From a virus (taxonomy: Duplodnaviria > Caudoviricetes), in IMG/VR virus record IMGVR_UViG_3300028888_000049: DNA of 64,000 nucleotides; one strand, given 5' to 3'. The translations under genes were made by a program, and so were the position numbers. The notes beneath the pieces are model-generated. The model was not told the DNA's origin, ran no database searches, and saw only the letters and a list, made by a program, of their open reading frames with translations. Positions 4,126-29,146 of the stretch are shown one piece after another (within the stretch, counting starts at the first letter, position 1; each line of letters begins with the position of its first letter).

Positions 4126-4222
4126 TTATAATCACCTTTAAATAGAAAATAAAAAAATTTTTAACAAATATAAACTAGATAAATTTTAATAAGGTAAACT
4201 AGAAAATATTTACTTTATAGAA

Positions 4223-4303
4223 CTATTTATTTTTAGGAAGACTATCATACCATAACATAAATTCTTCCATTGTAAAGAATTCAATCCAATTTAAGTTATT
4301 TTT
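4223..4303 (-). pseudogene. C-terminal remnant of a PD-(D/E)xK-type homing endonuclease
   Basis: Translates KNNLNWIEFFTMEEFMLWYDSLPKNK*, matching the C-termini of 4445..5308 (NNLNYIEWYTIKEFKVWF) and 32981..33838 (KNNITLLEFFTMREFNEWY); no start codon. Confidence 0.7.
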
Positions 4304-4357
4304 CTAGTTCTAATAATTATCCTTTTAAAGTTTTCTAAGGGGATAATTATGCAAATT

Positions 4358-4394
4358 GGAGATTTATAGAATATTCTGTAAGTCTCCTTTTTTT
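4358..4394 (+). terminator. intrinsic terminator-like hairpin
   Basis: GGAGATTTATAGAA/TTCTGTAAGTCTCC stem followed by a T-run. Confidence 0.55.
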
Positions 4395-4444
4395 AGTTCT
4401 AATATATTGCATAATTATTAAAAACAAATATAGGAAACTTTAAT

Positions 4445-7718: not shown

Positions 7719-8192
7719 ATGTCATTATATAAAGGAAATACAGAAATAGGAGCAATATATCATGGAAGTACTGAAATAAGTAAAATATATAAAGGCAGTA
7801 CTCTAATATATGAAAAAGTAAGTAAACCTTTATACTATTGTTATAAATATAATCAAGTTTATTATAACAATACATATGTTTTAACAATATATAAATCACC
7901 TGATAATAATACACTTTATATGAACAGTAATGCAACAACTACTAAAGATGTAAAAAGCAATGTAATAACATATCGAACATACACAACAAATTCTAATTCA
8001 TTAACTCAATTAACTGCTAAAACAAAGTTTTTTACAGTAAAGAATTATAGAGGTAGTATTGTAATGAGTTTGATTTTTCATAAGTCTAAAACAATTACTG
8101 ATTCTAATTGTGTACTTTCATTTTATGACGAAAATGATGAGCTTGTTGATATTACTCTTAATAGAGATAGTAACAATGATTTATATTCATAA
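7719..8192 (+). CDS. tail-fibre partner/tip protein with (I/L)YxG N-terminal repeats
   Basis: MSLYKGNTEIGAIYHGSTEISKIYKGSTLIY, an N-terminus type found next to tail-fibre genes. Confidence 0.55.
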   Translation: MSLYKGNTEIGAIYHGSTEISKIYKGSTLIYEKVSKPLYYCYKYNQVYYNNTYVLTIYKSPDNNTLYMNSNATTTKDVKSNVITYRTYTTNSNSLTQLTAKTKFFTVKNYRGSIVMSLIFHKSKTITDSNCVLSFYDENDELVDITLNRDSNNDLYS

Positions 8193-8720: not shown

Positions 8721-8750
8721 CTTTTAATATTTTTTCAATTACTCCTAGGA

Positions 8751-8783
8751 AAGACTTAACTTTAGATAGTTAGGTCTTTTTTA
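8751..8783 (+). terminator. intrinsic terminator directly upstream of site A
   Basis: AAGACTTAAC/GTTAGGTCTT stem followed by Ts. Confidence 0.65.
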
Positions 8784-8798
8784 TTATATTATTTAGGT

Positions 8799-8842
8799 CT
8801 ACTTTGTGTCGTTTATATGAATCTATAATATACCTAAACTAG
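8799..8842 (+). other. putative serine-invertase recombination site A (AA core 8820-8821)
   Basis: CTActttgtgtcgtTTATAtg-AA-tcTATAAtatacctaaacTAG; 8820-8844 is a perfect inverted repeat of 20379-20403. Confidence 0.7.
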
Positions 8843-8862
8843 AGCGTAGGAAATAGACACAA

Positions 8863-10995
8863 ATGCCAACATCACTCTCAAATATCACTGTTAAAGATTC
8901 TGCACATTCTCTTGTAATCAAATCAAACGATATTACTATTGATGGTACTAGTATACTTGGACAAAATAATTTTGTCACTCTTGATACAGCACAAACGATT
9001 TTGGGTAAAAAAACATTTAGTACTGAAATTATTCAAAATAAATCAACAAGTGGATATACAGGTTTTTATTCACAAAATACGGCTATTACAAGAGGAACCA
9101 CTCCTTCTTCAAATTCTGGTATTACTATAGGATTACAAGATTCAACGGGATTAAATTCATCTGGAAGATTAGCTGCATTTCAATTACAGTATAATACAGA
9201 TGGTAATATACAAGCGTCTATGATAGCTGGTGAACCAGTCTCAGGTAGTAGTGATAATGCGAGAATTAGTTTATTTAATACTGCTACGGGTACAGCTTAT
9301 ACATCAGCTCCAACACCTATGGAAGATACAACCACATCAAAACAAATTGATACTGTAGGTGCAAGAAATACTAAATTATATAAAGGAATTACTAACTGTA
9401 TTACATATATCCCGCAAGACATTAAGTTAGAGATAAACTCAAATGGGAAAGCTGTATTAAAGGCAGGGAGTAAGGTTTATGTACCGAATGGGTTTACAGG
9501 AACAACACCAAAATTTGATGTTAATACTATTGCTAGTGATATTACTTATAATTTTCAATCATCACAGAATGGAAAATATTTACTAGCAAACCATAACAAC
9601 GGACAAAATGCTGGCTGGTCTAAAGCTAACCTAGCGGAAAGTGGAACGAGTACAGAATCAAATACTTCATTTTATTATAGAACAGATGATAATAAAGTAT
9701 ATTATCTAAATGATTCTTCAGGCGGTATTTACACACTTCCTTTGGCTATTGTAAATTTAACAAATGGTGTTGCAACTATAGATCAAGTCTTTAACGGCTT
9801 TGGTTATATTGGTTCAACAGCATTTGCACTTCCTGGAGTTAAAGGACTTATACCTAATGGCAGAAATGAAGATGGAAGTTTGAAGAATATTGAGTTTATA
9901 ACAAGTACAGTATATACGAGAAATTTAACACAAACTGGTACATACTATATGGGATTAACAGTATCAGGAATTGCAGTGTCAAATTTAACAAATAGCTCAT
10001 ATAATGAAAATGAAAACATAAATTATTCAGGGACAGTTAAATGGTTTGCTTCTCCATATTGTATTTGTCTTTTATCATCAGGTGTCATTACATCTCTCAC
10101 TCCTAAAACCCCATTCCACGCAGTTGATTATAATGACTTTTCAGACTTGAAAGATATTGTAGATAACACTGTGAAGCTGACAGGTAACCAGACCATTAAT
10201 GGGGCTAAAACATTTACTGCTTCACCCGTTATAAGTAATAACATTACTGATACTTCATTATTTTTTAAAGATACAGGTATTGCTTCAAATTCAACAGTAC
10301 CTACAGCTGACAGATTACGTTCTTTTAGAGTTATGGCGAATGACAATACGATATTAGGAGACGTAAGATTCGTTAGACAGTCATCAGGAAATGTAACATC
10401 ACAACTAACTTGTAGAAAAGTTATAGATGGAACTCAATATAATTCTGCAGTAACAGCAAATGTTTCATCAACAGGTATTATATACGGAACTTGTCCAACG
10501 CCTCCGGCTGTTTCTAATACAACTGATGCTTATATAGCAACAACAGCATGGTGTAATGACCCAATAAAAAGTACTAATGTAGTTCATAGAAATGGTAATG
10601 AAACCATTGGTGGTACAAAGACATTTAATACTACTTATACATCATTCAAAGGAACAGCCATTGATATTACAAATGCAAAAACTACACAAAATGATGTAGG
10701 GATAAACTGGCTAGATAAAAATGGAACAGTTTTAGGACAAAATCATATTAGAACAGACACTACAGGCTCTGTTGCAAATAGTATGTATATCAAAGCTCAT
10801 AATAGCAATAGTTGGGTGAGTATCACTGTCGGTTTTGATACTAATGATAATGTCTATACACATGCTCCGACGCCAGCTGTTTCTAGTAATAATACTAATA
10901 TAGCAACTACGGCTTATGTAAACAATAAGTTTCAAGTTGTATCTGCACTACCAGCTTCTCCTGATAGTAATGTTTTCTACTTTATACCAGCTTAG
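8863..10995 (+). CDS. tail fibre / receptor-binding protein paralogue A
   Basis: Shared N-terminus MPTSLSNITVKD; fibre repeats (GNETIGGTKTF, IATTAYV); C-terminus VVSALPASPDSNVFYFIPA. Confidence 0.85.
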   Translation: MPTSLSNITVKDSAHSLVIKSNDITIDGTSILGQNNFVTLDTAQTILGKKTFSTEIIQNKSTSGYTGFYSQNTAITRGTTPSSNSGITIGLQDSTGLNSSGRLAAFQLQYNTDGNIQASMIAGEPVSGSSDNARISLFNTATGTAYTSAPTPMEDTTTSKQIDTVGARNTKLYKGITNCITYIPQDIKLEINSNGKAVLKAGSKVYVPNGFTGTTPKFDVNTIASDITYNFQSSQNGKYLLANHNNGQNAGWSKANLAESGTSTESNTSFYYRTDDNKVYYLNDSSGGIYTLPLAIVNLTNGVATIDQVFNGFGYIGSTAFALPGVKGLIPNGRNEDGSLKNIEFITSTVYTRNLTQTGTYYMGLTVSGIAVSNLTNSSYNENENINYSGTVKWFASPYCICLLSSGVITSLTPKTPFHAVDYNDFSDLKDIVDNTVKLTGNQTINGAKTFTASPVISNNITDTSLFFKDTGIASNSTVPTADRLRSFRVMANDNTILGDVRFVRQSSGNVTSQLTCRKVIDGTQYNSAVTANVSSTGIIYGTCPTPPAVSNTTDAYIATTAWCNDPIKSTNVVHRNGNETIGGTKTFNTTYTSFKGTAIDITNAKTTQNDVGINWLDKNGTVLGQNHIRTDTTGSVANSMYIKAHNSNSWVSITVGFDTNDNVYTHAPTPAVSSNNTNIATTAYVNNKFQVVSALPASPDSNVFYFIPA

Positions 10996-12395
10996 GCAGG
11001 AATGTAATAAAATACGTTAGAGTCCGGGCTAGCAGGTAAAGCTGAAACTACCTGATGTTTATTATTAACATATGCAGTTGTCGCAGCAGTAGCCTCATTT
11101 GAAGAAGTAGCAGGTGTAGGTAAGTTCACTTTACTATTAAATATTGCGACGCTATTACCATCTGACAGAACTTGTAAAACTAATTGAGAATAAGCTGAAC
11201 TCGTTTTGCCGTTTGCTCTAATCGCAAAGATTCTATTTTCACTTGTATCTACATTTAAATTAATATATCCTAATTGAGTAGAAGAAGCATCATACCACTC
11301 TATAAATCTTTGTGTACTTGTAGAAGTTGGTGTTCCATTAGTATAGGCTTTATTAAATAGTCTTATTTGTGCATATGAATTTGATGTGTTACCATTACCA
11401 AGTATTATTTGATTGTGTGCTGTGACCCAATTACTCATATTAAATTGTGAAAGATCACTGTGTAGTTTTTGTAATTCTAAACCTTTAGCACCATTTGATA
11501 AATAATGTATCCCTAAATAAGCAAGACGAGTGTTATTATTTCCTCTAAAATCATAACCTACATATTGATTTGATGAAGGAGTAGAACCTGGAGTAATACT
11601 ATTATTTTGAGCAATAAAATTAACTGGTCCAGTAATAGCCGCTACATAATTACTTATATCAAAATGTGCTGAAGAGGCTATTTGTGGAGAATTTTGATTT
11701 TTATGAGCTATTAAATCTAAATAAGTATAATATTGTGTACTGTTAGAAGGATCACCGTTTTGAACACATAAATGACAACCTACTGCATCATTAGTATATT
11801 GTCTCATTTGCATAAAAAATGTTCTACTACCGTTTTTATCAGCTTGTATATAATAATTATTTCCCCATGTATCTGCTGTTAAGGTTTTTGTTTTATCTAT
11901 AGTAGTATTAATCTGCTGTATACTTAAATTACTAAGACGTGATTGTACCCAAGCAGTAGTAGCAATTCGTGAGGTACTGTCTGATACTGAAGAAGGAGTT
12001 GGAGCTTCTGCATAAGATGTTCCGTCTGATTTTATACCTACTCGAATAGCAGCATAACCATTTCCATTTTGTTGTCTTGCGTATAAACTTTTTCTATAAG
12101 TACCATCTGTTAAATGTTCGCATTCTAATCCACCTAACCAAATATTATTTTTATCTGTAAATCCAATGGAACTAATAGTTTGTTCAGATGGAGCAGTAGT
12201 CCAATCATCATTCATACCTTTCTTATAAAATACTTCTCTGAACCATTTATGAGCTTTTATATCTTGATCAGTATCTAGTGTGACAAAATTATTTGTAGCA
12301 AGAATAGATGAACCATTTATAGTAATATCATTAGCTTTAACTATAAGTGTGTTAGTACCATCTTTTACTGTAATATTACTTAAACTTGTTGTCAT
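10992..12395 (-). CDS. tail fibre / receptor-binding protein paralogue B
   Basis: Same N- and C-terminal motifs; stop codon overlaps that of A. Confidence 0.85.
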   Translation of the reverse strand: MTTSLSNITVKDGTNTLIVKANDITINGSSILATNNFVTLDTDQDIKAHKWFREVFYKKGMNDDWTTAPSEQTISSIGFTDKNNIWLGGLECEHLTDGTYRKSLYARQQNGNGYAAIRVGIKSDGTSYAEAPTPSSVSDSTSRIATTAWVQSRLSNLSIQQINTTIDKTKTLTADTWGNNYYIQADKNGSRTFFMQMRQYTNDAVGCHLCVQNGDPSNSTQYYTYLDLIAHKNQNSPQIASSAHFDISNYVAAITGPVNFIAQNNSITPGSTPSSNQYVGYDFRGNNNTRLAYLGIHYLSNGAKGLELQKLHSDLSQFNMSNWVTAHNQIILGNGNTSNSYAQIRLFNKAYTNGTPTSTSTQRFIEWYDASSTQLGYINLNVDTSENRIFAIRANGKTSSAYSQLVLQVLSDGNSVAIFNSKVNLPTPATSSNEATAATTAYVNNKHQVVSALPASPDSNVFYYIPA

Positions 12396-12416
12396 TTTTC
12401 GTCTATTCCTTGTACT

Positions 12417-12460
12417 CTAATTCAGATATATTATAGATTCGTATAGAGTGTTAAAAATAG
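12417..12460 (-). other. putative recombination site B (core 12438-12439)
   Basis: Minus strand CTAtttttaacactCTATAcg-AA-tcTATAAtatatctgaatTAG; 22/25 identical to the gene-proximal half of A/C. Confidence 0.65.
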
Positions 12461-15833: not shown

Positions 15834-15902
15834 AAGTTAAACCTTTCTTTTACTTTTATTTAGAACTTCATCATAAATAGAACTTAATTATAACGCTAAT
15901 TT

Positions 15903-16838
15903 TTATTCTTTTTCATATTGGCATGGATCTGGAAATAATGTATATAGTAATCCATTAAGTTTAGGAAAATTTCGCCAGTTATCCGTTACATCATCAAAAA
16001 CTGATAGCCAACACTCATTAAGATAGTCTTTCGTAAGATCTCTTCCTAATGGAATTTTTACATCTTTTATAAGTCTTTGATTTTCAACAGTTTTTGTAGG
16101 ATATAAATTTCTATAAACTGATCTTTTATGTAGTACTTTTTTTGTATTTTGAAATTCTTTTATTTCTGGTCTGTTAAGAAATTCTAAAAAATCTTTTTTG
16201 TTAATTAATATTGGCCAGTGCGATTCATAGTTAAACTGGTTTTTACAATTCATTTGAGTAAGAAGTTCTTCTGCATAAGAAAACGCATATTGCCATCTAG
16301 ATTTCTTTTCTGTTTTACTGTATCTTTTTATTTCATCTAATAGTGTACCTAAGTATACGTTAGTATTTTCTTCCCAATTAGTTATTTGTTTTATAGCAAA
16401 GAAATCATCATTCATAAGAATAAAATTATCAGAAATATCTGGACATGTACAAGCAGTAGTATAATTAACCATACTGTTTTTCCATTTATTTCCTGTTTGT
16501 TCTGTATGTATATATTCTACATTTTGTACCCAAGAAGGCTTATATCCTATAATCCATATTTTACGATATTTACAGAATTTAGAAACAGAACGTAATGACA
16601 TTCTTAAATCAGGATTGATCTCTCCTTCTTTTACAATATAGACTAAATCATATAATGTATCTGTATCAATAGGATCTTGCTTAATAATATTACAATCTTC
16701 TATTTGCGATTTAAAAAGTACTTTTACTCTATCCGTATGTATTTTTTTTAATTTTTCTCTTTCTTTTGCTAATCTACGTAAATAAGGAGCTAATGTACAT
16801 CCTAAACTACTCATTATATTCTCCAGTAATATATACAC
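15903..16838 (-). CDS. Stealth-family (sugar-phosphotransferase)-like protein
   Basis: DLVY...DLRMSLRSV.KF...IWIIG..PSW...ISDNFILMNDDFF, a Stealth CR1/CR2-like pattern. Confidence 0.7.
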   Translation of the reverse strand: MYILLENIMSSLGCTLAPYLRRLAKEREKLKKIHTDRVKVLFKSQIEDCNIIKQDPIDTDTLYDLVYIVKEGEINPDLRMSLRSVSKFCKYRKIWIIGYKPSWVQNVEYIHTEQTGNKWKNSMVNYTTACTCPDISDNFILMNDDFFAIKQITNWEENTNVYLGTLLDEIKRYSKTEKKSRWQYAFSYAEELLTQMNCKNQFNYESHWPILINKKDFLEFLNRPEIKEFQNTKKVLHKRSVYRNLYPTKTVENQRLIKDVKIPLGRDLTKDYLNECWLSVFDDVTDNWRNFPKLNGLLYTLFPDPCQYEKE

Positions 16839-16886
16839 TATTTATAATGTATAGAACTGAAAAATACAAACAATAAGCGAATAAAT

Positions 16887-17159
16887 TTATTCGGAAAAAT
16901 CACCTGATTCTTCATCTTCAGGATAAGGTAAATTCTCTTCAATCCATGCTGTTACTTCTTTATCAAGAATTAAATAAGCTTCTTCATCTTCAGCAGTCCA
17001 ACTACCATTAGCTTGTCTTCTTTGTCTTTCTAATGTTTTATCATCAATGTGTTCTTTACGATATTGGATACGTTGTTGTTCTATTTCTTCGTGTGTAGGA
17101 ATATGAGGTTCATTTTCAACAGATTCTAAATAATCACCTCTATCTTCAAAAGAATGGTT
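16887..17159 (-). pseudogene. 5'-truncated tail-fibre assembly chaperone-like gene
   Basis: 90 open codons (NHSFEDRGDYLESVENEPHIPTHEEIEQQRIQYRKEHIDD...WIEENLPYPEDEESGDFSE*) with no in-frame start; directly after fibre C. Confidence 0.65.
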
Positions 17160-17166
17160 TTATACA

Positions 17167-20100
17167 TTAAGCTGGAATATAATAAAATACATTTGCATTC
17201 GGACTAGCTGGTAATGCAGAAACTACTTGATGCTTACTGTTACAGTAAGCTGTAGTAGCTATTTTGGTACTGTTATCAGATACTGCTGGTGTCGGAGCTT
17301 CAGTATAAAAAGAACCAGAAGCGTTGCATGATATTCCCAGAGTAGCACCGCTATTAGTTCCAGCAACAGGCGATTTTACAAACAAACGTGAAGAAACACT
17401 CCCATCTGTGTACATTCCTGTATATACTGAACCCATTTCAACATTATTTTTATCAGTAATTCTAGAACCGCCATAACAGTTTGAGCTAGGAGCAGTGCCT
17501 TGCGTATAAACGCTAGATTGATATCTTACACGCATATCACCGTCTTTTAAAACTATTGGAACATTACTAAAAGTCTTAGTACCTGCAATAGTTTGATTTC
17601 CTGTTAATTTAACACAGTCAGAAGTATCGCCACTAGCACTTCCGTATTCTTGGAATTTACCATTAGTATAAGCATATATTTTATCTTGTGGACAGAAATA
17701 GCATTGGTAAGTAGAGTACGTATAACCGATAGGAATGTAAAATTTATTATCAGCACTACTCGGAACAGTTGTCGTTACTAATGTTGAATCAATTGTCGCT
17801 GTTACACCATTAAGAGCAGATAATACTAAGTAGACTGTTGCATATTGAGTACCTGTCCAAGATGAATTACCTGTTATATCTCTGACACTTCTACCTGATA
17901 TTGCTCTAAAATTATTAGTACCTGTACCTGATGCACTAATAGCTGAGCCAGCCACCAGAATTGGATAGCTTATATCAAAAGTAATTCCACTGCCTATGTT
18001 TTTATAACCAGCAGAAGTTCCTACAATAGCCCTCCCTGCTGTAATAGCCGTTGCGGCTTTAATATTATTAGCAATTTGAAGTCTATCAGTAGTATTACTG
18101 TCTAAATCGCCTATTAATTGATAATATGTGCCATCATAAACAAATACGTATGTACGATTAATTCTTAAATATCCTTTATTAATAGCACTGCCACGATACT
18201 GAATAGCTTTTGCACCTGTACTATTAACATTAAGTGTCGGATTGTCTGCACCATTGGCTTCTGCTGTAAACTTAACAAAAATAACTGCACCAGTTTCTAA
18301 CTTAAATCCCGTACACGCAACTACTTTTTCTTGTGTAGCTGCTGCTGTATCACAAGTACCATAATGAGTAATATTAGCAGAACCATCAAACTCAACACCA
18401 TCTATCGTTCGTTTAGTAGTTAGCTTAGCAGCAGAACCAGTAATACTACCAGACGATGTGATATATCCTTGAGCCTTAACGAAAGCAGTAGTAGCGATTT
18501 TAGTTGAGTTATCAGATGTAGCAGGTGTAGGAGCGTAAGTAAATACATTTTTATTTTGGTCGTAACCAATTGTTAATTTCGCGTCATTTGTTGAACCTGA
18601 TGTTGGTTCAAATACTGCTAAATTTAATGTGGAAACTCCGTTTGAGTTATAATCATGATAGATTTGAGCCATTTTATTAGTTTGAGCAGTTCCATTTTTA
18701 TCATAAACAGTTCCAAACCATCCATCTATTGTACTTGTTGGAGCTGTACCTTTACTTATACCAGAATATTGCATGTAAAGATTAGGTTGAGTCATCTTTA
18801 TTGTTGGAGTACTAGTAAAAGTCTTATTCCCAGCAATAGTTTGGTTACCAGTAAGCTTAACAACATCACTATCAGCAGCTTTTGCATTCAAAGCGTTTTG
18901 TAAGTCTGTTTGATTTGATAATGTACCTGTAACTGATCCCCAAGTAGCTTGACCACCAGAACTATATCCTTGTGCTTTAACCCAGGCAGTAGTAGCAATC
19001 TTTGTGGAGTTATCAGAAGTAGCTGGTGTAAGTGTAGTTAAATACTCACTAGTATCTCCTAAAAATAATTTTTTCCAAGAAGTCCATGTTCCATTTTTAC
19101 AAGACCTAAAATATATACAACTCTCCTTAGCACCATAATATTTTTGAAAGATAATGTGATCAGTTGACGAAAAATTCCTTATCATAGATGTTTCTAATAA
19201 AAAGGTATCTTGGTCTGCTATTGGTTTGTCTGTTATGTTAGCACTCGCACCATTAGAAGTACAATAATAATATAATGTTTCACTACTACCAGTTGAAACA
19301 CAATCATTTAAACTTATTGTTTGGAAAGATATATTTTTACCTCTAAATACACCATTGAAATATAGTGCATCATTTATAGTTTTATTTCCATTTATAGTTT
19401 CATCACCGCTTCTGTGAACAACGTTTGTAGATGTTGCTGGATTATTTACCCAACCCATTGTTGCTAAAAGGGTATCTGATGTTGAGGAAGTTGAATATAC
19501 TAAATTATAGTTATAAGTATTTGATAAATTTCCTCCACCTGTATATATTAATGCGAAATTTTGACCATCATCAGCAATCATATTTCTAAGGTCAGCATAT
19601 GAAGTATTTTCGCCATATTTGTGTGCTCTAAACCAATAGCCTGTTTGTGATTTACCTTCTTGCGAATTATAGCTACGATAATTATATAAAGAAGTAACAG
19701 AATTATTAGTTAAATCTGTTGCTTCTAAAATAACATGCGCTGAGGACTTAGTAAGTTCAGAAAAATCACTATACCCTTTTAGTTTATATATAGCACCACT
19801 TGTTAATGTTAAGTTTCCACTCTTTTCTTCATTACCAGTTCTATGAATAACATTTGTACTGGTATCTGGATTGTTTACCCAACCTTTAGTTGGTACTTCT
19901 GTATCTGTTGTTGCACTAACGACTCTCGTTAAGGATAAGTTTGTTCCATTACCATTAATACTAGCCGTAAATGCTCCATTATCACGATTTTGAACTTCAA
20001 TATACCCTTCTTTATTTGAAGTTGCATTAACAGTATTTAATCTATTATATAAAGCACCATTGACATAATATGATGATTGATTAACACTACCCTTTCCATT

Positions 20101-20346
20101 AGTATCAGTTAAATTAAATAAAGCAGTTCCCCCACTACCTAAGTTAGCTGTTCTTTGAATGGCAGAACTAAAGGTTTTAACACCAGATATACTTTCATTA
20201 CCAGTTTTGTGTACTACATCTGCATCGTTAGCTTTATTATTTATCTGTGTTTGTATACTAGTACCATCTATTGTGATGTCGTTTGATTTAACTATGAGTG
20301 TATGACTTGAATCTTTTACTGTGATATTTGATAAAGAGGTAGGCAT
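17167..20346 (-). CDS. tail fibre / receptor-binding protein paralogue C (1059 aa)
   Basis: Shared N- and C-termini; multiple TPATSDNSTKIATTA and VKLTGNQTIAG repeats. Confidence 0.88.
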   Translation of the reverse strand: MPTSLSNITVKDSSHTLIVKSNDITIDGTSIQTQINNKANDADVVHKTGNESISGVKTFSSAIQRTANLGSGGTALFNLTDTNGKGSVNQSSYYVNGALYNRLNTVNATSNKEGYIEVQNRDNGAFTASINGNGTNLSLTRVVSATTDTEVPTKGWVNNPDTSTNVIHRTGNEEKSGNLTLTSGAIYKLKGYSDFSELTKSSAHVILEATDLTNNSVTSLYNYRSYNSQEGKSQTGYWFRAHKYGENTSYADLRNMIADDGQNFALIYTGGGNLSNTYNYNLVYSTSSTSDTLLATMGWVNNPATSTNVVHRSGDETINGNKTINDALYFNGVFRGKNISFQTISLNDCVSTGSSETLYYYCTSNGASANITDKPIADQDTFLLETSMIRNFSSTDHIIFQKYYGAKESCIYFRSCKNGTWTSWKKLFLGDTSEYLTTLTPATSDNSTKIATTAWVKAQGYSSGGQATWGSVTGTLSNQTDLQNALNAKAADSDVVKLTGNQTIAGNKTFTSTPTIKMTQPNLYMQYSGISKGTAPTSTIDGWFGTVYDKNGTAQTNKMAQIYHDYNSNGVSTLNLAVFEPTSGSTNDAKLTIGYDQNKNVFTYAPTPATSDNSTKIATTAFVKAQGYITSSGSITGSAAKLTTKRTIDGVEFDGSANITHYGTCDTAAATQEKVVACTGFKLETGAVIFVKFTAEANGADNPTLNVNSTGAKAIQYRGSAINKGYLRINRTYVFVYDGTYYQLIGDLDSNTTDRLQIANNIKAATAITAGRAIVGTSAGYKNIGSGITFDISYPILVAGSAISASGTGTNNFRAISGRSVRDITGNSSWTGTQYATVYLVLSALNGVTATIDSTLVTTTVPSSADNKFYIPIGYTYSTYQCYFCPQDKIYAYTNGKFQEYGSASGDTSDCVKLTGNQTIAGTKTFSNVPIVLKDGDMRVRYQSSVYTQGTAPSSNCYGGSRITDKNNVEMGSVYTGMYTDGSVSSRLFVKSPVAGTNSGATLGISCNASGSFYTEAPTPAVSDNSTKIATTAYCNSKHQVVSALPASPNANVFYYIPA

Positions 20347-20380
20347 TATATAAGTCCTTGTTTTGTCTATATTTTTATCT

Positions 20381-20424
20381 CTAGTTTAGGTATATTATAG
20401 ATTGATATAAAAGGAAAGAAGTAG
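20381..20424 (-). other. putative recombination site C (core 20402-20403)
   Basis: Minus strand CTActtctttccttTTATAtc-AA-tcTATAAtatacctaaacTAG; upstream half identical to F, gene-proximal half identical to A. Confidence 0.75.
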
Positions 20425-20515
20425 TAATATAATTTAAAAGAAAATAAATAAAAATCCACTGAAATCCAAAAATATATAACAAACACATACTTTAGCATAT
20501 AAAACTTTTTTAAGC

Positions 20516-20544
20516 TTTACAAATGTTAAAGATAACTATATAAT
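20516..20544 (+). promoter_or_regulatory. sigma70-like promoter of the invertase
   Basis: TTTACA-N17-TATAAT; similar TTTACA elements at 34013, 37726, 44855. Confidence 0.65.
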
Positions 20545-20600
20545 ATATATCGTAAAAACAAAAATATTAACTTTAATTTTTAGAAAAAGGAAATAATACA

Positions 20601-21242
20601 ATGACAGTATATGCATATCTACGTGTTTCAACACAACAACAAGATGAACAAAATCAAAGACTTGGTATTGATAAAAAAGCAGAACAACTAAATCTAACAA
20701 TAGATAAATACATTATAGATAAGAAATCAGGAGCCATTGATCCTAGTGAAAGAAACTTAGGTAAACTACTTAAAAAACTAAAACAAGGAGACATACTACT
20801 TATCAGTGAAATATCAAGACTATCACGTAAACTATTCTCTCTTTTCAGCATCATAAAAGTACTACTAGAGAAACAAGTCACTATCTATTCAGTAAAGGAT
20901 GGATATACACTAGATGCATCCATTCAGTCAAAGATACTTGCGTTCGCATTTGGTATTTCAGCCGAATTGGAACGCCAATTACTTTCTCAGAGGACTAAGG
21001 AAGCATTGGCTCATAAAAGAGAGCAGGGTGTTATATTAGGTCGTCCTAAAGGTTCGAAGTCTTCATATCACAAACTTGATTCACATAAGACAAGATTATT
21101 GAATGATTACGAAAAAGGAGCAACTATAACATCACTTGCAAAAAGGTATAAAGTCTCTCATAAAACTGTAAAGAAGTATGTAGATCGTTATAGAGGCATT
21201 TATCATCTTAAAGTTGAAGAGCAAGTTACTGAAGAGATTTAA
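20601..21242 (+). CDS. serine recombinase / DNA invertase, Mpi (multiple promoter invertase)-like family
   Basis: Catalytic YLRVST, SEISRLSR, IQSKILAFAFGISAELERQLLSQRTKEALA, LGRPKG and a C-terminal HTH. Confidence 0.9.
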   Translation: MTVYAYLRVSTQQQDEQNQRLGIDKKAEQLNLTIDKYIIDKKSGAIDPSERNLGKLLKKLKQGDILLISEISRLSRKLFSLFSIIKVLLEKQVTIYSVKDGYTLDASIQSKILAFAFGISAELERQLLSQRTKEALAHKREQGVILGRPKGSKSSYHKLDSHKTRLLNDYEKGATITSLAKRYKVSHKTVKKYVDRYRGIYHLKVEEQVTEEI

Positions 21243-22185
21243 GTAGAAGTTCTTTATCTTCATCCCAACAGTAGTGGAAGTTTTTACAAGTATATTTAAA
21301 GCTTCCACTATTTTTATTTTTATTACACGCTCTATAAACAGATGATTTTTTTACTCCTATTTTTTCTGCTAATTTGGCGCCGTTTGTGTAAATTTTATCT
21401 TCTTCTAAACAATAGACTTTTGAAAACTTTTTATTTATAGGAATAGTAAATGTATCTTTATCTTTTAAATAACACCAATGATAACCTTCTGCTGTATGTT
21501 TTATTCCTGCACAAACTTTTTGAATGGCTGTTCTACAATTAAATTCTTTTTCAGCTTCTGCTATAGTATTGAATATTCTATTTAATTCTACACAATATAC
21601 AGGAGTTTTATTAGATTTATCTTCTCTTGGTGTATATGTATCTATATCCTTTTCATAACACCAATGCATATTAGCAGAAGTAGTATATTTCTTTTCGCAA
21701 CAAGCAATTATTCCAGTATCTGTAAAATTATATTCTGGATATTTTTCACAAAATTCTTTATATGTAAGAGTTTCGTTTAATTCAAAACAATGATATTTAC
21801 TAACAGTACGTCTTTCATTAAACTCTTTAAATTTTGTACTATTTTTAAGACCTTCACTTATATGTTTTTTAACTTCTTCTGTATATGCTTTTGATTCTTC
21901 TCCGCCCGAAGTTGAATTATAACCTTCATTCATAGAATTATAATGTTTTATCCAATAAATTTCTTTTTGACTTAATTCTTCTTGTGAATTGCCTTCATCT
22001 ATTTGTTCAATAATAAAGTTATCTTTACCATATTTGCGAATAGCATTATGAAACTTATTGTGATAGATATTAGCATTTGCTTTATTAATATGTTGTTTGA
22101 AACGTCTTTTTAACTTTTGACGTGTTTGTCCTATATAGACTTTATTATTTACTAAGTTTGTAATTTTGTAGATGATACCGTACAT
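21226..22185 (-). CDS. GIY-YIG homing endonuclease with NUMOD-like repeats
   Basis: IIYKITNLVNNKVYIGQT...GYN; repeated VYCxE...IxxxC...HWC units. Confidence 0.85.
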   Translation of the reverse strand: MYGIIYKITNLVNNKVYIGQTRQKLKRRFKQHINKANANIYHNKFHNAIRKYGKDNFIIEQIDEGNSQEELSQKEIYWIKHYNSMNEGYNSTSGGEESKAYTEEVKKHISEGLKNSTKFKEFNERRTVSKYHCFELNETLTYKEFCEKYPEYNFTDTGIIACCEKKYTTSANMHWCYEKDIDTYTPREDKSNKTPVYCVELNRIFNTIAEAEKEFNCRTAIQKVCAGIKHTAEGYHWCYLKDKDTFTIPINKKFSKVYCLEEDKIYTNGAKLAEKIGVKKSSVYRACNKNKNSGSFKYTCKNFHYCWDEDKELLLKSLQ

Positions 22186-22187
22186 TT

Positions 22188-22502
22188 TTAATATTTTCCG
22201 TAGTGAATATAGTCAAATAAATCTTTTTCAATCCCTTTAAGTTTATTTTCATCTTTTACAATATCGGAATGTACATTTTCTACAATAGTTGTAATTTTTG
22301 AGACGAATCCAGAGCCGATTGCAATAAGTGATCCATATATTGCCATAATTGAGAGAATTATAGATAAAATATCTGAAATTAATCCAATTTTATCATTTAA
22401 ATTCATTTTTTGAGTATTCTTCATTAAGATTCCTCCTATTTTTGTTAGTTCTAATAATATAAATAGAACCGAAATATTTTTTATTTTTATAAGTAAATAC
22501 AA
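22188..22502 (-). CDS. small membrane protein (start probably at internal MKNTQK)
   Basis: One TM segment; RBS GGAGG before the internal Met. Confidence 0.55.
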   Translation of the reverse strand: MYLLIKIKNISVLFILLELTKIGGILMKNTQKMNLNDKIGLISDILSIILSIMAIYGSLIAIGSGFVSKITTIVENVHSDIVKDENKLKGIEKDLFDYIHYGKY

Positions 22503-22530
22503 AGATAAATTTAAAAAATAAGCAGTTCTA
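22448..22530 (+). promoter_or_regulatory. two GTTCTA motifs pointing toward site D (candidate late expression site)
   Basis: GTTCTA at 22448-22453 and 22525-22530. Confidence 0.5.
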
Positions 22531-22653
22531 AAAAGTAATATATGACAAGTTTTCTACTTTATATTGTTATTAAAAATTCTTGAACTTAAAAATACGGATA
22601 TGCAGTATATATTAAGGATGGTTAATAACGGTATATTGTAAAAAAGGATAATA

Positions 22654-22697
22654 ATTAACTAGGTAAATTAAACCAACATTTAACATTATAAATCAAG
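22654..22697 (+). other. putative recombination site D (AA core 22675-22676)
   Basis: TTAAAcc-AA-caTTTAA; 22675-22707 is a perfect 33-bp inverted repeat of 25716-25748 that begins exactly at the AA. Confidence 0.7.
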
Positions 22698-22708
22698 GAC
22701 TTAGATAG

Positions 22709-23926
22709 ATGCCAACTTCTCTTTCAAATATTAAGGTTACAGATGGACAAAATAATCTTGTAATTACAGGAAACGATATAACAATAAATGGTACATCTAT
22801 TTTAGGACAAAACAATTATGTTACATTAGATACTACTCAGACTATTACAGGAGTAAAGACTTTTAGTAATACTATAAAAAGTACAAGACAAGGAGATGGT
22901 ATTTTTTTAACTAGAAAAAGTAGTACAGATAGTACAGGAGATGCATTTGTAGATTTAAAATTTTTTGATACATTAGGTAATAGAAAAGGTGGAGTTAGAA
23001 ATATACTTGAAAATGGAAATACTACTTGTTTATATGTAACAAACGAAGCTGGAAATGCTATTAAAAATACATTAAACCTAGTATATAATGAATCATCTGA
23101 TAGAGTATATACAAGTATAATTAATCCAGAAATTAATTCTCTTAATTTAAGAACAAACCAATATAATTGGGGTACAAATCCAACTACTGGTACAGATTTA
23201 CTATCACATAATTTTAGAGATAATACCGATACTCCTGTTGTTTCTAATAGACCATATTTATCATCAAATGGTGATCGATATTATTTTATATCTGTTATTA
23301 ATAAAGAAAAAACAAAATATACTGAATTAGCTGTTGGTTGGGATGCATCTGGAAATGCAAATACTGTTGCTCCAATTCCAACGTCTACTACTTCTACATC
23401 TTCTAGACAAATAGCTACTACTGGATGGGTAAATACAGTTGGTAATAATGTTGTGCATTTAACTGGTAATGAAACTATAACAGGAGCTAAATGGGTTAAT
23501 AATAGTTATATAATAAGAGGTAATGGTGAAATTCAATTTACAGATACAACCGGATATACACCATCCAATCCACCTTCTGAAAGTAAAGCTTTTGGTACAT
23601 TACGCTGGGGAGTAGGCTGTACAGCTGGTAATACTAGTTGGTTAAGTGGTGGTTCTGAATTATTAAAAATACAACCAATTATATCATCACAAGGAAAAGT
23701 AAATGTTGCTTTCGTAGTGTTTGATAGTTCTGGTAATAGTAAGGAATTATTAGACTTATATTCTACTGCGGATGGAAGTGATGCTGCAGCTATAACTATT
23801 ACACCTTCTAATGCAGATAATTCTAGAAAAATAGCTACGACTGCGTATGTAAATAATAAGTTACAAGTCGTATCAGCTTTACCAGCATCTCCTGATAGTA
23901 ATACATTCTATTTTATTCCTGCATAA
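22709..23926 (+). CDS. tail fibre / receptor-binding protein paralogue D
   Basis: Shared N- and C-terminal motifs. Confidence 0.85.
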   Translation: MPTSLSNIKVTDGQNNLVITGNDITINGTSILGQNNYVTLDTTQTITGVKTFSNTIKSTRQGDGIFLTRKSSTDSTGDAFVDLKFFDTLGNRKGGVRNILENGNTTCLYVTNEAGNAIKNTLNLVYNESSDRVYTSIINPEINSLNLRTNQYNWGTNPTTGTDLLSHNFRDNTDTPVVSNRPYLSSNGDRYYFISVINKEKTKYTELAVGWDASGNANTVAPIPTSTTSTSSRQIATTGWVNTVGNNVVHLTGNETITGAKWVNNSYIIRGNGEIQFTDTTGYTPSNPPSESKAFGTLRWGVGCTAGNTSWLSGGSELLKIQPIISSQGKVNVAFVVFDSSGNSKELLDLYSTADGSDAAAITITPSNADNSRKIATTAYVNNKLQVVSALPASPDSNTFYFIPA

Positions 23927-23983
23927 TAATTATTAAAAAGTTCTATACATATATATCATTAAAAAATAAATGAGAATGTATAG

Positions 23984-24460
23984 ATGCCTATATGGAGAAG
24001 AATATTACAAGGAACTAAAAAAGTATCTCCTGCTGTACAAAGAAATGTATCTAATATAGCAAGAATATCTAACTTAGATTTAAGATATGATGAGGGTGTA
24101 AAAACTTTAACTTTTTATGCTAATGTAAAATCATCTACGTTTAATACATTCTATTCTGTTATTATTACATTCAAAGGTGTAGAAAGAACAGATGGTTTAA
24201 CAGAAGATGAAATTAACAAAGGATTTCAACCAAAACCTACACTATCAAAAAATGAAGTAATGATCCGCTGTTCTTGTAATAATTACAGATTTCGTTTTGA
24301 TCAAGCTAACAGAAAAAATAAAGTAGGTACTGGTGCTAGATTTCCAATATATAGAAGAAAAACAAATAGAAAACCATATAATCCACATATGATAGCAGGT
24401 ACATGTAAACATGTTATAGAATTATTAGATTATCTTCAAAAAAATGGTTTTATACACTAA
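23984..24460 (+). CDS. SWIM-type Zn-finger protein
   Basis: CSC...CKH; GTTCTA motif at 23940-23945. Confidence 0.65.
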   Translation: MPIWRRILQGTKKVSPAVQRNVSNIARISNLDLRYDEGVKTLTFYANVKSSTFNTFYSVIITFKGVERTDGLTEDEINKGFQPKPTLSKNEVMIRCSCNNYRFRFDQANRKNKVGTGARFPIYRRKTNRKPYNPHMIAGTCKHVIELLDYLQKNGFIH

Positions 24461-25713
24461 GCCGGAATATAATAAAATACATTTGCATCTGGACTGGCTG
24501 GTAATGCAGAAACTACTTGATGCTTATTATTACAATAAGCCGTAGTCGCGATTTTCGTACTATTGTCTGATACTGCTGGAGTAACATCTAAACTTATATA
24601 ATCATTATTAAGATATATTTTGCGATTATTTCCTGTTGTTCCATCTTGTGGTCTTAATTGGATACCTGTTGCATTGTTTGTTCCTTGTATTACTAAACAC
24701 CCTCCTACATTACCATCTCCAACTTTTACATCATCACCTATATTGTTCAAAATATTGTTTGCAAATTGAACAGCACTACTAAATGCTTTAGTACCACTAA
24801 TAGTCTGATCACCATTCAATGTTACATAGTTTGATAAACTTTGATGAGAAGTAAGATATCCTTGTGCTTTGACAAATGCAGTTGTTGCAATCTGTGTAGA
24901 GTTATCAGAAGTCGCGGGAGTAGGGGCGTAAGTATAAACCGTTCCATCTCTTTTTGCTATAACTCTGATTGCTGCGTCATATGCTACATCCGAAGAATTT
25001 AAATTCGTCGCAATCATAGATGCTTGTATTTCATTACTTGTTGTTTGTGTTACATAAAAATTACCAATTTGTGCATTGTTTTTATCTCTAATGAGCCAAC
25101 TAGTATATTGAGTAGATGACGGAGCTGTTCCTCTTGTAATAGTTGAACTTTTTCTTATTGCATCCATACTATGTATTGTGTTTTCACTAAAGGTTTTAGT
25201 ACCTGTAATAGTTTCATTTCCTGAAGTATGTACTATTCCATTTCCGGCTGTTTTAACCCATGCAGTAGTAGCGATCTTAGTACTATTATCAGTTACAGCA
25301 GGTGTAATAGCTGTAGTATAACCATTATCGTTAGAATCACAACCAATATTTAGCATTCCTTTATTATTACCGTTTTTATCATAAACTAAAAATCTAATTT
25401 CCCTTTCAGTAGAAGTATCTCTTAAATATATATCACTCAGTACTAAAGCATTTTTATCAAGAAACTTACAGTGTGTATAATTTGCTGTAGATGGATTTAC
25501 AGTTCTATCCATACCAGTATTTTTAAACTGAATAAAAACAGTATCAGTACCTCTAGTAATTGATTTTACACCTGTAATCTCTTGGTTTGTATCTAACGTT
25601 ACAAAGTTATTAGTAGCTAATATACTACTTCCATTAATTGTAATATCATTAGCCTTAACAACTAATGTATTTTGTCCATCTTTTACCGTTATATTACTTA
25701 ATGAAGTAGTCAT
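24457..25713 (-). CDS. tail fibre / receptor-binding protein paralogue E
   Basis: Shared N- and C-terminal motifs; N-terminus nearly identical to B. Confidence 0.85.
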   Translation of the reverse strand: MTTSLSNITVKDGQNTLVVKANDITINGSSILATNNFVTLDTNQEITGVKSITRGTDTVFIQFKNTGMDRTVNPSTANYTHCKFLDKNALVLSDIYLRDTSTEREIRFLVYDKNGNNKGMLNIGCDSNDNGYTTAITPAVTDNSTKIATTAWVKTAGNGIVHTSGNETITGTKTFSENTIHSMDAIRKSSTITRGTAPSSTQYTSWLIRDKNNAQIGNFYVTQTTSNEIQASMIATNLNSSDVAYDAAIRVIAKRDGTVYTYAPTPATSDNSTQIATTAFVKAQGYLTSHQSLSNYVTLNGDQTISGTKAFSSAVQFANNILNNIGDDVKVGDGNVGGCLVIQGTNNATGIQLRPQDGTTGNNRKIYLNNDYISLDVTPAVSDNSTKIATTAYCNNKHQVVSALPASPDANVFYYIPA

Positions 25714-25725
25714 ATTATCTAAGTC

Positions 25726-25769
25726 CTTGATTTATAATGTTAAATGTTACTTTAATTGACTTATTTTAG
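25726..25769 (-). other. putative recombination site E (core 25747-25748)
   Basis: Minus strand CTAaaataagtcaaTTAAAgt-AA-caTTTAAcattataaatcAAG. Confidence 0.7.
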
Positions 25770-25783
25770 AAATTATATATAAT
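25756..25783 (+). promoter_or_regulatory. sigma70-like promoter between the E and F cores, pointing at fibre F
   Basis: TTGACT-N16-TATAAT. Confidence 0.5.
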
Positions 25784-25786
25784 GAT

Positions 25787-25830
25787 CTACTTCTTTCCTT
25801 TTATATCAACATTAAAAATATTATAGGACT
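25787..25830 (+). other. putative recombination site F (AA core 25808-25809)
   Basis: 25787-25809 CTACTTCTTTCCTTTTATATCAA is a perfect inverted repeat of 20402-20424 and ends exactly at the AA; the gene-proximal half resembles D/E. Confidence 0.7.
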
Positions 25831-25841
25831 TAGACAAAAAT

Positions 25842-28103
25842 ATGCCTACATCTGCTTCAAACATAATTGTGAAAAATGGTACAAAAAATACAGTAGTATC
25901 TGCTGATGATATTAATATTAACGGTACTTCTGTAATTACTACTTTAAGTTCTAAACAAGACGTTTTAACTCCTGGTACCGGAATTGATATTACCAATAAC
26001 GTTATCTCCTCTACATTAAACTCTGCACAATGGGGTAATATTACCGGTACCATCTCTAATCAAACAGACTTACAAACAGCCTTAGATAATAAACAAAATG
26101 TAGCAACTGCTGTAAATTATGACAACATCACTAACTGTATTACATATATTCCACAAGATATTAAACTTGAGCTGAATAATGGTACTCTGACATTAAAAGC
26201 TGGTTCTAGAGTTTATGTACCAAATGGGACTAATACTTTTGATGAAGTTGTGATTAGCGAAGATATTTCACTTAGTAATAAAACTTCTACTAGAAAGATA
26301 CAATCATTAATTTTAATGAGGATTAATAAATCGAGTTTGGAGATTTGGAATGTAAATGATAGTTATTCTGGTACGACTCAACCAACGGCTACATATCAAT
26401 GCTGGTATAATACAACCAATAATACAATAAAGTCATCAGTGAATGGTGGTAGTACATACGGTGTTAATTTGTCTTTACCACTTTGTATTGTTTCTGTTGA
26501 TTCAACGGGTATGACATCTATAGACCAAGTCTTTAATGGCTTTGGATATATTGGCTCAACAGTCTTTGCTTTACCTGGTATACAATATTTATACTCTAAT
26601 GGTAGAAATGAAAATGGAACATTAAAGAATATTACTAATACAACATCCTCTGTTCTGACTTTTACTTGGAATCCGGGTTTATGGGGTAATAATTTCCCCG
26701 TTGTATTAGATTTGTATGGTGTTGAGTTTTTGGGTAATGAGAATACTTTTATTGGGGGCGAAAGACCAGAAAATCCCTCAGCTTATACACGTTGGTATAA
26801 TAAAGAAGAAAATCAATGGTACATTTATGTTACATACTGGGATAAAGCATATTTGTGCATTTATTCTTATGTTGACCTCTCTAACGGCAAAGTTGTTGGG
26901 TTTAGAACAAAAACAGCCTTTCATGCAGTAGATTATAATGACTTCTCTGACTTGAAAGATGATGTAGAAGCTAACACTAATACTTTAGAGTATAAACAAG
27001 ATGAAGCCACTGCTGTCAACTATGACAACATCACTAACTGTATAACAGAAATTCCACAGAATATACAACTTGAGTTGAATAATGGAACGCTGACACTAAA
27101 AGCAGGAAGTAAAGTATATGTGCCAAATGGTGCAGGTGTGTTTACGCTTGTTACAACTACATCAGATGTTTCAAGAAGCGAATTTGGTACAACAACTGGA
27201 AATAATCTATATTTAGAGGGAGTATACGGAGGTGGTACTATTTCGGCTATTTCTTGGTCTCTACAAAGCAATACATCAAGTGGCACAACATCACCAGCAT
27301 CAGGTATATTCTATAATACAAGCACAAATTATATAAATAGGTATGTTGAAGGAGAAGCAAAAGACCAAAGAAGTTTTCCGCTTGCGCTAATAACACTTGA
27401 TAATGGAACACCGACAAGTATAGACCAAGTCTTCAATGGCTTTGGTTATATTGGCTCAACAGTCTTTGTTCTTCCTGGTGTTAAAGGATTAATTCCAAAT
27501 GGTAGAAATGCGGATGGTACACTGAAGAGTATTGAGTTAAGTTTTTCAAAAGTTGTAACACAGACAAACAATGTTACATATTCCGGAGATATAGCTATAA
27601 CTTCGGATTATTTTGATTTGGCACAAGGTAATATGTATAATGAAAAAGATAATAGAAATTATCTTTCTGATGGTGTAACACCATTTAATAGGTGTATTGC
27701 GGGAAAATTTGTTAAGGGAACAAACGGTGTCATCACTTCTCTTACTCCTAAAACAGTCTTTCGTGCTCTTGACTACAACGACAGCTCTACAATATCAGGT
27801 TGGTCTATGCCATCAAGTAGGTATATAGACTTAACCCTTGGCGCTAGTGGTGCAAATTATACAGCTCCGGCAAATGGGTGGATATTTTTTGCAAAAGCCT
27901 CCGATTCATCAGGTCAGTTTAATGCTATTACTAATAGTACAGGCGGTGGTTTAAGAAGCGACTGTACTGCATCTAGTTCAGGACAGTGGGCGACTGTTAA
28001 CTGTCCTGTAAAAAGAGGAGATATATTTAGTATTGAGTATACAACATCAGGAGAAACAAAAAGATTCCGTTTCATTTATACTGAGGGAGAAAGTTCTAAT
28101 TAA
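25842..28103 (+). CDS. tail fibre paralogue F (duplicated ITNCIT-module, different C-terminus)
   Basis: N-terminus MPTSASNIIVKNG; two copies of the ITNCIT.IPQ.I.LEL...IDQVFNGFGYIGST module; C-terminus SMPSSRYIDLTLGASG..YTAPANGW. Confidence 0.85.
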   Translation: MPTSASNIIVKNGTKNTVVSADDININGTSVITTLSSKQDVLTPGTGIDITNNVISSTLNSAQWGNITGTISNQTDLQTALDNKQNVATAVNYDNITNCITYIPQDIKLELNNGTLTLKAGSRVYVPNGTNTFDEVVISEDISLSNKTSTRKIQSLILMRINKSSLEIWNVNDSYSGTTQPTATYQCWYNTTNNTIKSSVNGGSTYGVNLSLPLCIVSVDSTGMTSIDQVFNGFGYIGSTVFALPGIQYLYSNGRNENGTLKNITNTTSSVLTFTWNPGLWGNNFPVVLDLYGVEFLGNENTFIGGERPENPSAYTRWYNKEENQWYIYVTYWDKAYLCIYSYVDLSNGKVVGFRTKTAFHAVDYNDFSDLKDDVEANTNTLEYKQDEATAVNYDNITNCITEIPQNIQLELNNGTLTLKAGSKVYVPNGAGVFTLVTTTSDVSRSEFGTTTGNNLYLEGVYGGGTISAISWSLQSNTSSGTTSPASGIFYNTSTNYINRYVEGEAKDQRSFPLALITLDNGTPTSIDQVFNGFGYIGSTVFVLPGVKGLIPNGRNADGTLKSIELSFSKVVTQTNNVTYSGDIAITSDYFDLAQGNMYNEKDNRNYLSDGVTPFNRCIAGKFVKGTNGVITSLTPKTVFRALDYNDSSTISGWSMPSSRYIDLTLGASGANYTAPANGWIFFAKASDSSGQFNAITNSTGGGLRSDCTASSSGQWATVNCPVKRGDIFSIEYTTSGETKRFRFIYTEGESSN

Positions 28104-28139: not shown

Positions 28140-28793
28140 ATGATTTTAATTTATATGATAACCAATATGATAAATAATAAAAAATATATAGGTCAAACAA
28201 AGCATTCTTTAAAATGGAGATTTTATAATCATTGTCAAAAAAGCAATGGATGTAAGAAACTTTGTCATGCAATTCAAAAATATGGTAAAGAAAATTTTAT
28301 AATAACAAAAATAGATGAAGCTCCCACAAGAGAAGAAGCAAACATTAAAGAGCGTTATTATATTTCTTATTATAATACACAAATAGAAGGGTATAATATA
28401 GCAGAAGGCGGATTTAATGCTAAGTCTACAAGGCGTAAAAGAGTAATCTGTTTAGAAACTGGTGAAAAATTCGATAGTATTACAGATTGTGCTAAAAAAT
28501 ATAACGCAAACAAAGTAGATTATATAGCCAGAGTTTGTCATGGAAATAAACCTACTTTTAAAGGTTATCATTTTGCATTTTTAGATAAAGACGATAAACC
28601 CAGGTTAGATAAAATAAGATTAAATGCACCAAAATCACACAAAAAGACATTATGTATTGAGACTGGAGAAATATTTAAAGATTCTAAAAGTGCATCTGAT
28701 TGGTTAGGAGTTCATCGTAATGCAGTATCAATGTGCTGCAGAGGATTATGTAAAACAATTAAAGGTTACCATTTTAAATATGTGGAGGAATAA
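28140..28793 (+). CDS. GIY-YIG homing endonuclease
   Basis: LIYMITNMINNKKYIGQT...GYN; CLETGE repeats. Confidence 0.85.
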   Translation: MILIYMITNMINNKKYIGQTKHSLKWRFYNHCQKSNGCKKLCHAIQKYGKENFIITKIDEAPTREEANIKERYYISYYNTQIEGYNIAEGGFNAKSTRRKRVICLETGEKFDSITDCAKKYNANKVDYIARVCHGNKPTFKGYHFAFLDKDDKPRLDKIRLNAPKSHKKTLCIETGEIFKDSKSASDWLGVHRNAVSMCCRGLCKTIKGYHFKYVEE

Positions 28794-28798
28794 TATAA

Positions 28799-29146
28799 AT
28801 GTATAAAGCAATTAAAGATAACAAAATTATAGCAATTAACGAAACAGGTGAATTTCCTTGTCTTATTTATGATGAAGTAGTTGAAGATACAGAACACACC
28901 TGTGAAGATTATAAGCATTATAATGGTGAGTTTACACTTCACAATATCGAGAAAGACAATGAAGAAATGAAACAAGCTCGTGCCAATGCTTATACAGTTG
29001 AAGTTGATCCTTTAATGTCTGAATATAACCGCAAAAAGACTTTCAATCTGTTTGAAGAAGGTGAAGAAGAAGAACTTATAAAAGCTATTCAAGATAAAGT
29101 AGTCGAGATTAAAGAGAAATATCCATATCAAGAGAATAATATATAA
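28799..29146 (+). CDS. tail-fibre assembly chaperone-like protein
   Basis: Follows fibre F; R..AY..EVDPL...IKEKYPY pattern. Confidence 0.6.
   Translation: MYKAIKDNKIIAINETGEFPCLIYDEVVEDTEHTCEDYKHYNGEFTLHNIEKDNEEMKQARANAYTVEVDPLMSEYNRKKTFNLFEEGEEEELIKAIQDKVVEIKEKYPYQENNI

Follow-up and report, generated by a model that had tools for sequence, protein, structure and literature searches.

The locus considered here raises the question of how the leaders of six paralogous fibre-like genes in one phage genome came to share exact blocks that all end at the same dinucleotide. The genes lie in a 64,000-nucleotide (nt) stretch of DNA (hereafter, the window, the positions of which serve as coordinates throughout) that is part of the 263-kb contig of a tailed phage (Caudoviricetes; IMG/VR record IMGVR_UViG_3300028888_000049), and the blocks belong to six crossover sites, denoted A to F after the genes. 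Comparison with related contigs makes it almost certain that recombination takes place at these sites, and the locus as a whole is probably a switch that, by DNA inversion at multiple sites, exchanges entire tail-fibre-like genes at one main expression position.

The sequence at 20379-20403 is the exact reverse complement of 8820-8844 (25 bp; sites C and A), that at 20402-20424 is the exact reverse complement of 25787-25809 (23 bp; sites C and F), and that at 22675-22707 is the exact reverse complement of 25716-25748 (33 bp; sites D and E). All three half-site identities had been claimed in an initial annotation of the sequence, and each is exact and bounded by AA. The blocks of 33, 25 and 23 bp are the top three exact inverted repeats by length in the 64 kb, and non-overlapping exact inverted repeats of at least 23 nt appeared in none of 300 dinucleotide shuffles of the window. 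When the sites are aligned at the AA core, the exact runs extend 0 nt to the left and 23 to the right for A and C, 21 left and 0 right for C and F, and 0 left and 31 right for D and E. The same annotation sorted the arms into classes (L1-R1 in A and B, L2-R1 in C, L2-R2 in F, L3-R2 in D and E), a scheme that stands for the exact blocks and is loose elsewhere: L1 is weak, with the left arms of A and B alike at 15 of 25 positions, compared with 16 for A and C and 17 for A and F; the L3 arms of D and E agree at 16 of 25; and the right arm of F matches the R2 arms of D and E at 13 of 25, with an exact run of 4 nt.

Each site is an imperfect dyad in which positions 3-7 outward from the core read TWTAA on both sides (T3 and A6 in all 12 arms, T5 and A7 in 11 of the 12). 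The short dyad motif alone is not rare, with 26 relaxed matches in the window versus 16 in shuffles, and five strict matches versus two. The asymmetric core AA, read in the direction of the gene, is present at six of the six sites, 32-55 nt 5' of the start codons. Sites A (8806-8835, core 8820-8821), D (22661-22690, core 22675-22676) and F (25794-25823, core 25808-25809), on the plus strand, are oriented one way, and sites B (12424-12453, core 12438-12439), C (20388-20417, core 20402-20403) and E (25733-25762, core 25747-25748), on the minus strand, the other. Between them lie the segments S1, with genes A and B; S2; S3, with an invertase gene, bounded by site C at its left end and site D at its right end; S4, with gene D, a passenger gene and gene E; and S5, of 59 bp. 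Serine recombinases are known to join only left to right arms when the core is asymmetric. Immediately after the identical leaders, agreement at third codon positions falls to 14-15 of 30.

Strand exchange at the cores as the source of the shared boundaries, which the initial annotation proposed, is supported because the recombinase that it needs is encoded next to site C. The gene (20601-21242, plus strand) lies in S3 (20404-22674, 2.27 kb) and encodes a Mpi-like serine invertase of 213 amino acids (aa) with the hallmarks of small serine recombinases, namely, a catalytic domain with Ser10 and RLSR motifs and an intact C-terminal helix-turn-helix domain. The protein matches PF00239 with 104.9 bits (cut-off 23.3), Ser10 aligns with gamma-delta resolvase, and the best family match is NF009949 (Mpi; 224.6 bits, E = 1e-66), below the curated cut-off of 272. 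A sigma70-type promoter match for the invertase gene (11 of 12) is located at 20516-20544 on the plus strand, and its -35 and -10 are kept in relatives.

Other combinations of left and right arms, predicted in the initial annotation, are found in related public contigs (designated here by L numbers). Those with invertases 97-98% identical to that of the window differ from it at both S3 ends. In L025, the left end of S3 is on a D/E arm and the right end is on a C arm followed by a C-type gene, an arrangement that is exactly the reciprocal product of C-D inversion; the two crossovers map to intervals of 2 and 3 nt. L022, from another sample, has the same left junction. The left end of S3 is joined to F in L020 and L021, and the right end is joined to an A/B-type arm in L020 and to an F arm in L026. 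In L003 (invertase 80% identical), S3 is inverted relative to D-like and C-like genes; in L014 (73% by BLAST), both S3 arms and the AA are kept, between two paralogues; and in L028, position A carries the leader found at position D in L020. Altogether, site C has other partners in L020-L022, L025 and L003, and the partners of site D in relatives are of the C, A, F and D/E types. The predicted L3-R1 combination (L025, L020 and L003) and a further one, L2 joined to the D/E arm (L025 and L022), each break at AA, the crossover intervals in L025, L022, the right end of S3 in L020, and L003 being 2-3 nt at the core. Because the parents share only these 2-3 nt, and three of the junctions come from k=31 assemblies, junctions other than the F joins are not assembly errors; the new arm combinations recur in independent ENA and Logan samples.

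The arrangement in the window can be converted into each of the tested pairs of S3 junctions by 1-3 inversions. By computation, 320 arrangements are accessible through inversions between opposite sites, a number that is the same when S5 is never flipped alone; no gene needs more than two inversions to arrive at the right end of S3. Cassette number differs between strains, although the tested junction pairs can be reached by inversion. L035 contains, at 3560-5262, an additional AA site, the seventh, and with it a further paralogue of 436 aa with an F-type C-terminus, both absent from the window; this insert also carries a small gene like 28799-29146, is inserted relative to window positions 15891-15906, and has flanking alignments that overlap by 16 bp. 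The contig ends of L002, L022 and L023 and the left ends of L025 and L026, considered as evidence of mixing, were set aside because ordinary repeats can explain them. With the predicted recombinants found, the attribution of the boundaries to strand exchange holds, but the boundaries are not three independent ones as the initial annotation had it, A/C and C/F being the two halves of one site. The identical half-sites were made by duplication or gene conversion, and crossovers then set their boundaries on the core; strand exchange alone is insufficient.

The sites had been described as a record of past crossovers, which they are, but not purely of past ones, because one sequencing run, SRR30829485, contains the A/B cassette in both orientations. 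In this run, the whole cassette is a contig of its own, L032, both ends of which, including that at site A, lie 1 nt outside the core, and the left arms flanking the cassette share one base, which is the overhang of the L032 ends. The two ends of L032 share only 14 nt, too little for the breaks to be caused by a repeat. The neighbouring contig, L035, extends through the core and the 11 nt that are the same in the A and B arms, and ends there. In a k=31 graph built in silico, one orientation yields a single unbroken contig, and both orientations together yield exactly L032 and this end of L035. The cassette may be flipping at present, or two strains may occur together in the sample. In the same run, L025 reads without a break across the right end of S3, a pattern that drift of the silent cassettes and selection on the expressed one would be expected to produce.

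In the proposed switch, the Mpi-like invertase would bind the TWTAA dyads and cut at the asymmetric AA core, after which left and right arms could be rejoined in any combination between sites of opposite orientation. The right arms would bring the ribosome-binding site and travel with the gene, and the left arms would stay with the spacers. S3, with the invertase and two outward AGTTCTA promoters, would be a movable cartridge that brings its promoters to one complete fibre gene: the gene at the right end of S3 would be made, and the genes at position A, at the back of S3, or at S5, a promoterless parking spacer, would be stored silent. The motif AGTTCTA is located upstream of many genes in the sense orientation, with 25 of the 67 matches intergenic compared with 10 expected (for example, at 530, 4396, 5391, 8229, 23940 and 37192). 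Two copies face site D (22447-22530, plus strand; at 22524 and 22447), 150 and 227 nt before it, and score 16.3 and 14.8, respectively, with a matrix built from other genes, the training minimum of which is 11.2; the other five sites score at most 7.3. Both copies are invariant in six aligned relatives, and S3 is the only segment with conserved AGTTCTA promoters facing a site. To judge from these motifs, S3 is probably the main expression cartridge, with site D as the proposed expression position.

Directly 5' of site A, there is a terminator-like hairpin (8746-8783, plus strand; -17.2 kcal/mol), the stem of which is kept in L028 with a changed loop, and position A is probably silent behind it. 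S5 (25749-25807) combines the same two arm types as S3 with neither invertase nor promoter motif, and its length is conserved at 58-59 bp among relatives; a sigma70-like promoter in S5 was considered and rejected, the -10 not being conserved (lost in L033 and L034). The long leader that extends from the promoters to site D (22531-22674) contains blocks invariant down to L014 and could be an enhancer or an RNA hairpin; 6 of 32 pairs show double changes, which is weak evidence of RNA folding in such AT-rich sequence, and there is no Rfam match for this leader.

S3 also contains an optional passenger, a gene for a GIY-YIG homing endonuclease (21226-22185, minus strand) that overlaps the invertase stop codon and is split in L026; a second such gene lies within the locus at 28140-28793. 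In L025, L003 and L014, the S3 passenger is absent and a strong hairpin takes its place, and this hairpin after the invertase, with its T-run, could shield the left end of S3. An open reading frame (ORF) of 78 aa with one strong hydrophobic segment (22188-22424, minus strand) is kept inside S3 in all relatives, and its promoter motif overlaps back-to-back with the motif at 22447; the product could be a regulator or a membrane protein.

All six paralogues are complete ORFs of 405-1059 aa. In the invertible cassette S1 (8822-12437), gene A (8863-10995, plus strand, 710 aa) and gene B (10992-12395, minus strand, 467 aa) are convergent, with a 4-bp overlap. Gene C (17167-20346, minus strand, 1059 aa) has matches to PHROG tail and virion proteins. 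Cassette S4 (22677-25746) consists of gene D (22709-23926, plus strand, 405 aa), gene E (24457-25713, minus strand, 418 aa), which matches tail fibre PHROGs, and between them a 158-aa passenger gene (23984-24460, plus strand) with a promoter motif of its own; the passenger protein contains CxC and CKH motifs (a possible zinc site) and is 81% identical in L003. Gene F (25842-28103, plus strand, 753 aa) has the common N-terminal module and a different C-terminus. The module, 30 residues common to all six proteins, is found in about 22 protein clusters of a 1.84-billion library, a C-terminal motif is common to A-E and not F, and PF18338 repeats score above the cut-off in A, C and E. When a structural model of E was compared with viral structures using Foldseek, a tail fibre was matched with E = 4e-5 and a low TM-score. 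The predicted docking partner of the A-E motif is a 157-aa protein encoded at 7719-8192 (plus strand). The docking model of the trimeric C-terminus of E with this protein scored 0.83, compared with 0.36 for the best control, a mark that 51 of 78 solved complexes and 2 of 108 mismatched pairs also reached; the contacts agree between runs to at least 96%, the pLDDT of the partner is at least 47, and the modelled interface is formed by residues 408-418 (the A-E motif) and the first 33 residues of the partner. Because the N-terminal module is common to all six proteins and the C-terminal docking motif to five, the models suggest that these are interchangeable tail parts competing for the same docking points.

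The fibre bodies are mosaic between strains in L032, L025, L020 and L021 (A-like proteins of 608 versus 710 aa, B-like proteins of 494 versus 467 aa), and such module exchange is a second layer of variation. An open stretch without an ATG after gene C (approximately 16885-17155, minus strand) resembles the small protein encoded at 28799-29146 and is possibly a remnant of a fibre assembly gene, and S2 further encodes a Stealth CR2-like protein (15903-16838; PF11380, below the cut-off).

The same recombination might serve several expression positions, in the form of three mostly binary switches (A/B, D/E and C/F), in each of which one left arm would be active and the other silent, such that the virion would carry two or three fibres. 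This explanation appears rather unlikely, even if the left arms come in look-alike pairs, the A/B cassette flips between its own two sites in one run, there is a terminator at position A and none at B, 25 pairs of genes at positions D and B are reachable, and the F-type proteins have a different C-terminus; against it, junctions across the pairs (C-D, D-F and D-A) are common, the S5 match loses its -10, and the phage promoter scores at site D only. It is less probable still that the inversions are real and of little effect, with all fibres expressed by read-through and the sites serving mainly for the gain, loss and exchange of cassettes between co-infecting phages. Regulated expression would account for the conserved promoters that face one site, the terminator in front of another and the conservation of a mini-spacer lacking a promoter, and intramolecular inversion reaches all tested junction pairs, although the seventh site and paralogue in L035, the lack of the convergent B gene in L028, and the mosaic fibre bodies are all compatible with cassette exchange.

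The explanation that dispenses with site-specific recombination, in which ordinary duplicated promoters or leaders were altered by homologous recombination or mis-assembly, we consider very improbable. The A-C right arms do resemble the 3' part of the promoter motif, all arms come with a ribosome-binding site, and the joins of the left end of S3 to F in L020 and L021 may be repeat-mediated, having perhaps been assembled through the 23-bp repeat. However, crossover intervals of 2-3 nt leave too little sequence for either homologous recombination or a k=31 misjoin, the new combinations were seen repeatedly in independent samples, the coding sequences diverge at third codon positions immediately after identical leaders, and L025, L022 and the L032/L035 pair contradict this scenario. 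Apart from the F joins, several points weigh against a switch with one main expression position as drawn here. The in silico graph took its flanks from two sources, AGTTCTA was named a promoter from its position only, the model of E is of moderate quality (pLDDT 68, pTM 0.42), and there is no significant Protein Data Bank match for its fold. No terminator was found between a promoter at 12809 and site B, and no minus-strand terminator between 22469 and site C in the window strain, so that more than one gene may be transcribed; position B, read through from the promoter at 12809, may be a second expression position. An inversion switch with one main expression position nevertheless remains the probable explanation. 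A more far-reaching version of it is tentative and, in our judgment, holds a lesser chance of being correct: the self-contained cartridge could dock on each of six or seven complete fibre genes through sites alike in little more than the 2-bp core, S5, as a promoterless copy of its ends, would park unused genes, and the same sites would take in cassettes from related phages, which would make the locus both a phase switch and an integron-like library.

Among known systems, the sites of Min, Gin and Cin are imperfect dyads around an asymmetric 2-bp core at which crossover occurs, and these systems employ a Fis-bound recombinational enhancer and catalyze inversion only, with no deletion between direct sites. 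The present locus shares with them the serine invertase, the imperfect dyads, the asymmetric 2-bp core and crossover at the core. In the Hin system, the enzyme gene lies within the inverted promoter segment, as it also does here. Phage serine invertases with several crossover sites, namely, p15B Min, Mu Gin, P1 Cin and the three-isoform FRphi shufflon, generate variants of the tail fibre through multiple inversions (PMC6109161; PMC13418256), and in Min, Gin, Cin, Rin and the FRphi shufflon, the C-terminus of the fibre varies while the N-terminal part is constant (PMC6109161, PMC13418256, PMC6906374). In contrast to Min, Gin and Cin, the core here lies 5' of the start codon, so that whole genes move and no fusion protein is made, the invertase is inside the moving segment, the enzyme is closest to Mpi, and the carrier is a 263-kb phage. 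The Vpma/Xer1 system of Mycoplasma agalactiae consists of six whole genes with sites in the 5' untranslated regions, silent genes that are moved behind a unique promoter, terminators and an adjacent recombinase (PMC2268961). Like Vpma, and also vsp and vsa, the present locus has six whole genes, sites in the 5' leader and an adjacent recombinase. The Vpma enzyme, however, is a tyrosine recombinase, its carrier is a bacterial chromosome and its sites are unaltered by recombination, whereas here a serine enzyme of a phage acts on sites alike in little beyond the core and a 5-bp dyad; as the counterpart of the unique promoter, the AGTTCTA motif faces site D only, and read-through at B and C is possible. 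Mpi of Bacteroides fragilis works in trans, and its targets are small promoter segments that lie apart from one another (PMC6109161; PMC2268961); it represents the closest enzyme family and likewise inverts promoter-bearing DNA, but the six sites of the present locus lie within a single 17-kb region and recombine across pairs. The Rin shufflon of bifidobacterial prophages, with a tyrosine recombinase, 11-bp rix sites inside the gene and a constant N-terminus (PMC6109161), is, like the switch proposed here, a multi-site one for a receptor-binding protein in a gut phage, and is excluded here by the serine enzyme. The present system thus follows the logic of Vpma with Min-type chemistry and is a member of neither; a literature search that covered few subscription papers yielded no paper on this architecture.

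The carrier has no close cultured relative, its sheath and helicase being at most 31% identical to those of cultured phages. Scans of IMG/VR with the invertase, gene E, the L3 arm, the N-terminal module and the 158-aa gene gave no matches, and a scan of JGI metagenomes gave only distant resolvases. A scan of GTDB yielded a single alphaproteobacterial invertase (51%), which was not taken to indicate the host because fibre E had no counterpart in the genome concerned. In L029, a 225-kb phage, a 55% identical invertase is encoded beside fibre genes, the leaders of which are directly repeated (1075-1397 and 5544-5866), with similarity that begins abruptly about 36 nt before the start codon; no matching dyad system was found in the part seen, and this is possibly a related switch. 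Elsewhere in the window, AT-rich intergenic DNA contains a 22-bp exact inverted repeat (50026-50047 and 50235-50256) and a 43-bp imperfect one (52388-52484).

In the published phage fibre switches that were found, fibre tips are swapped inside a gene, in temperate or cryptic phages, whereas here whole genes of 405-1059 aa move in a jumbo phage of 263 kb, and the rearrangement is visible in public data. The locus provides a natural set of mismatched half-sites that recombine, and thereby a test of the minimal requirements of a serine invertase outside the core and of its means of avoiding deletions when three sites are direct and three inverted. The case also shows why loci of this kind fragment in metagenome assembly, and how switching can be recognized from the ends of contigs. 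For the phage itself, switching is likely to select the host-binding fibre that is made and would thereby change host recognition.

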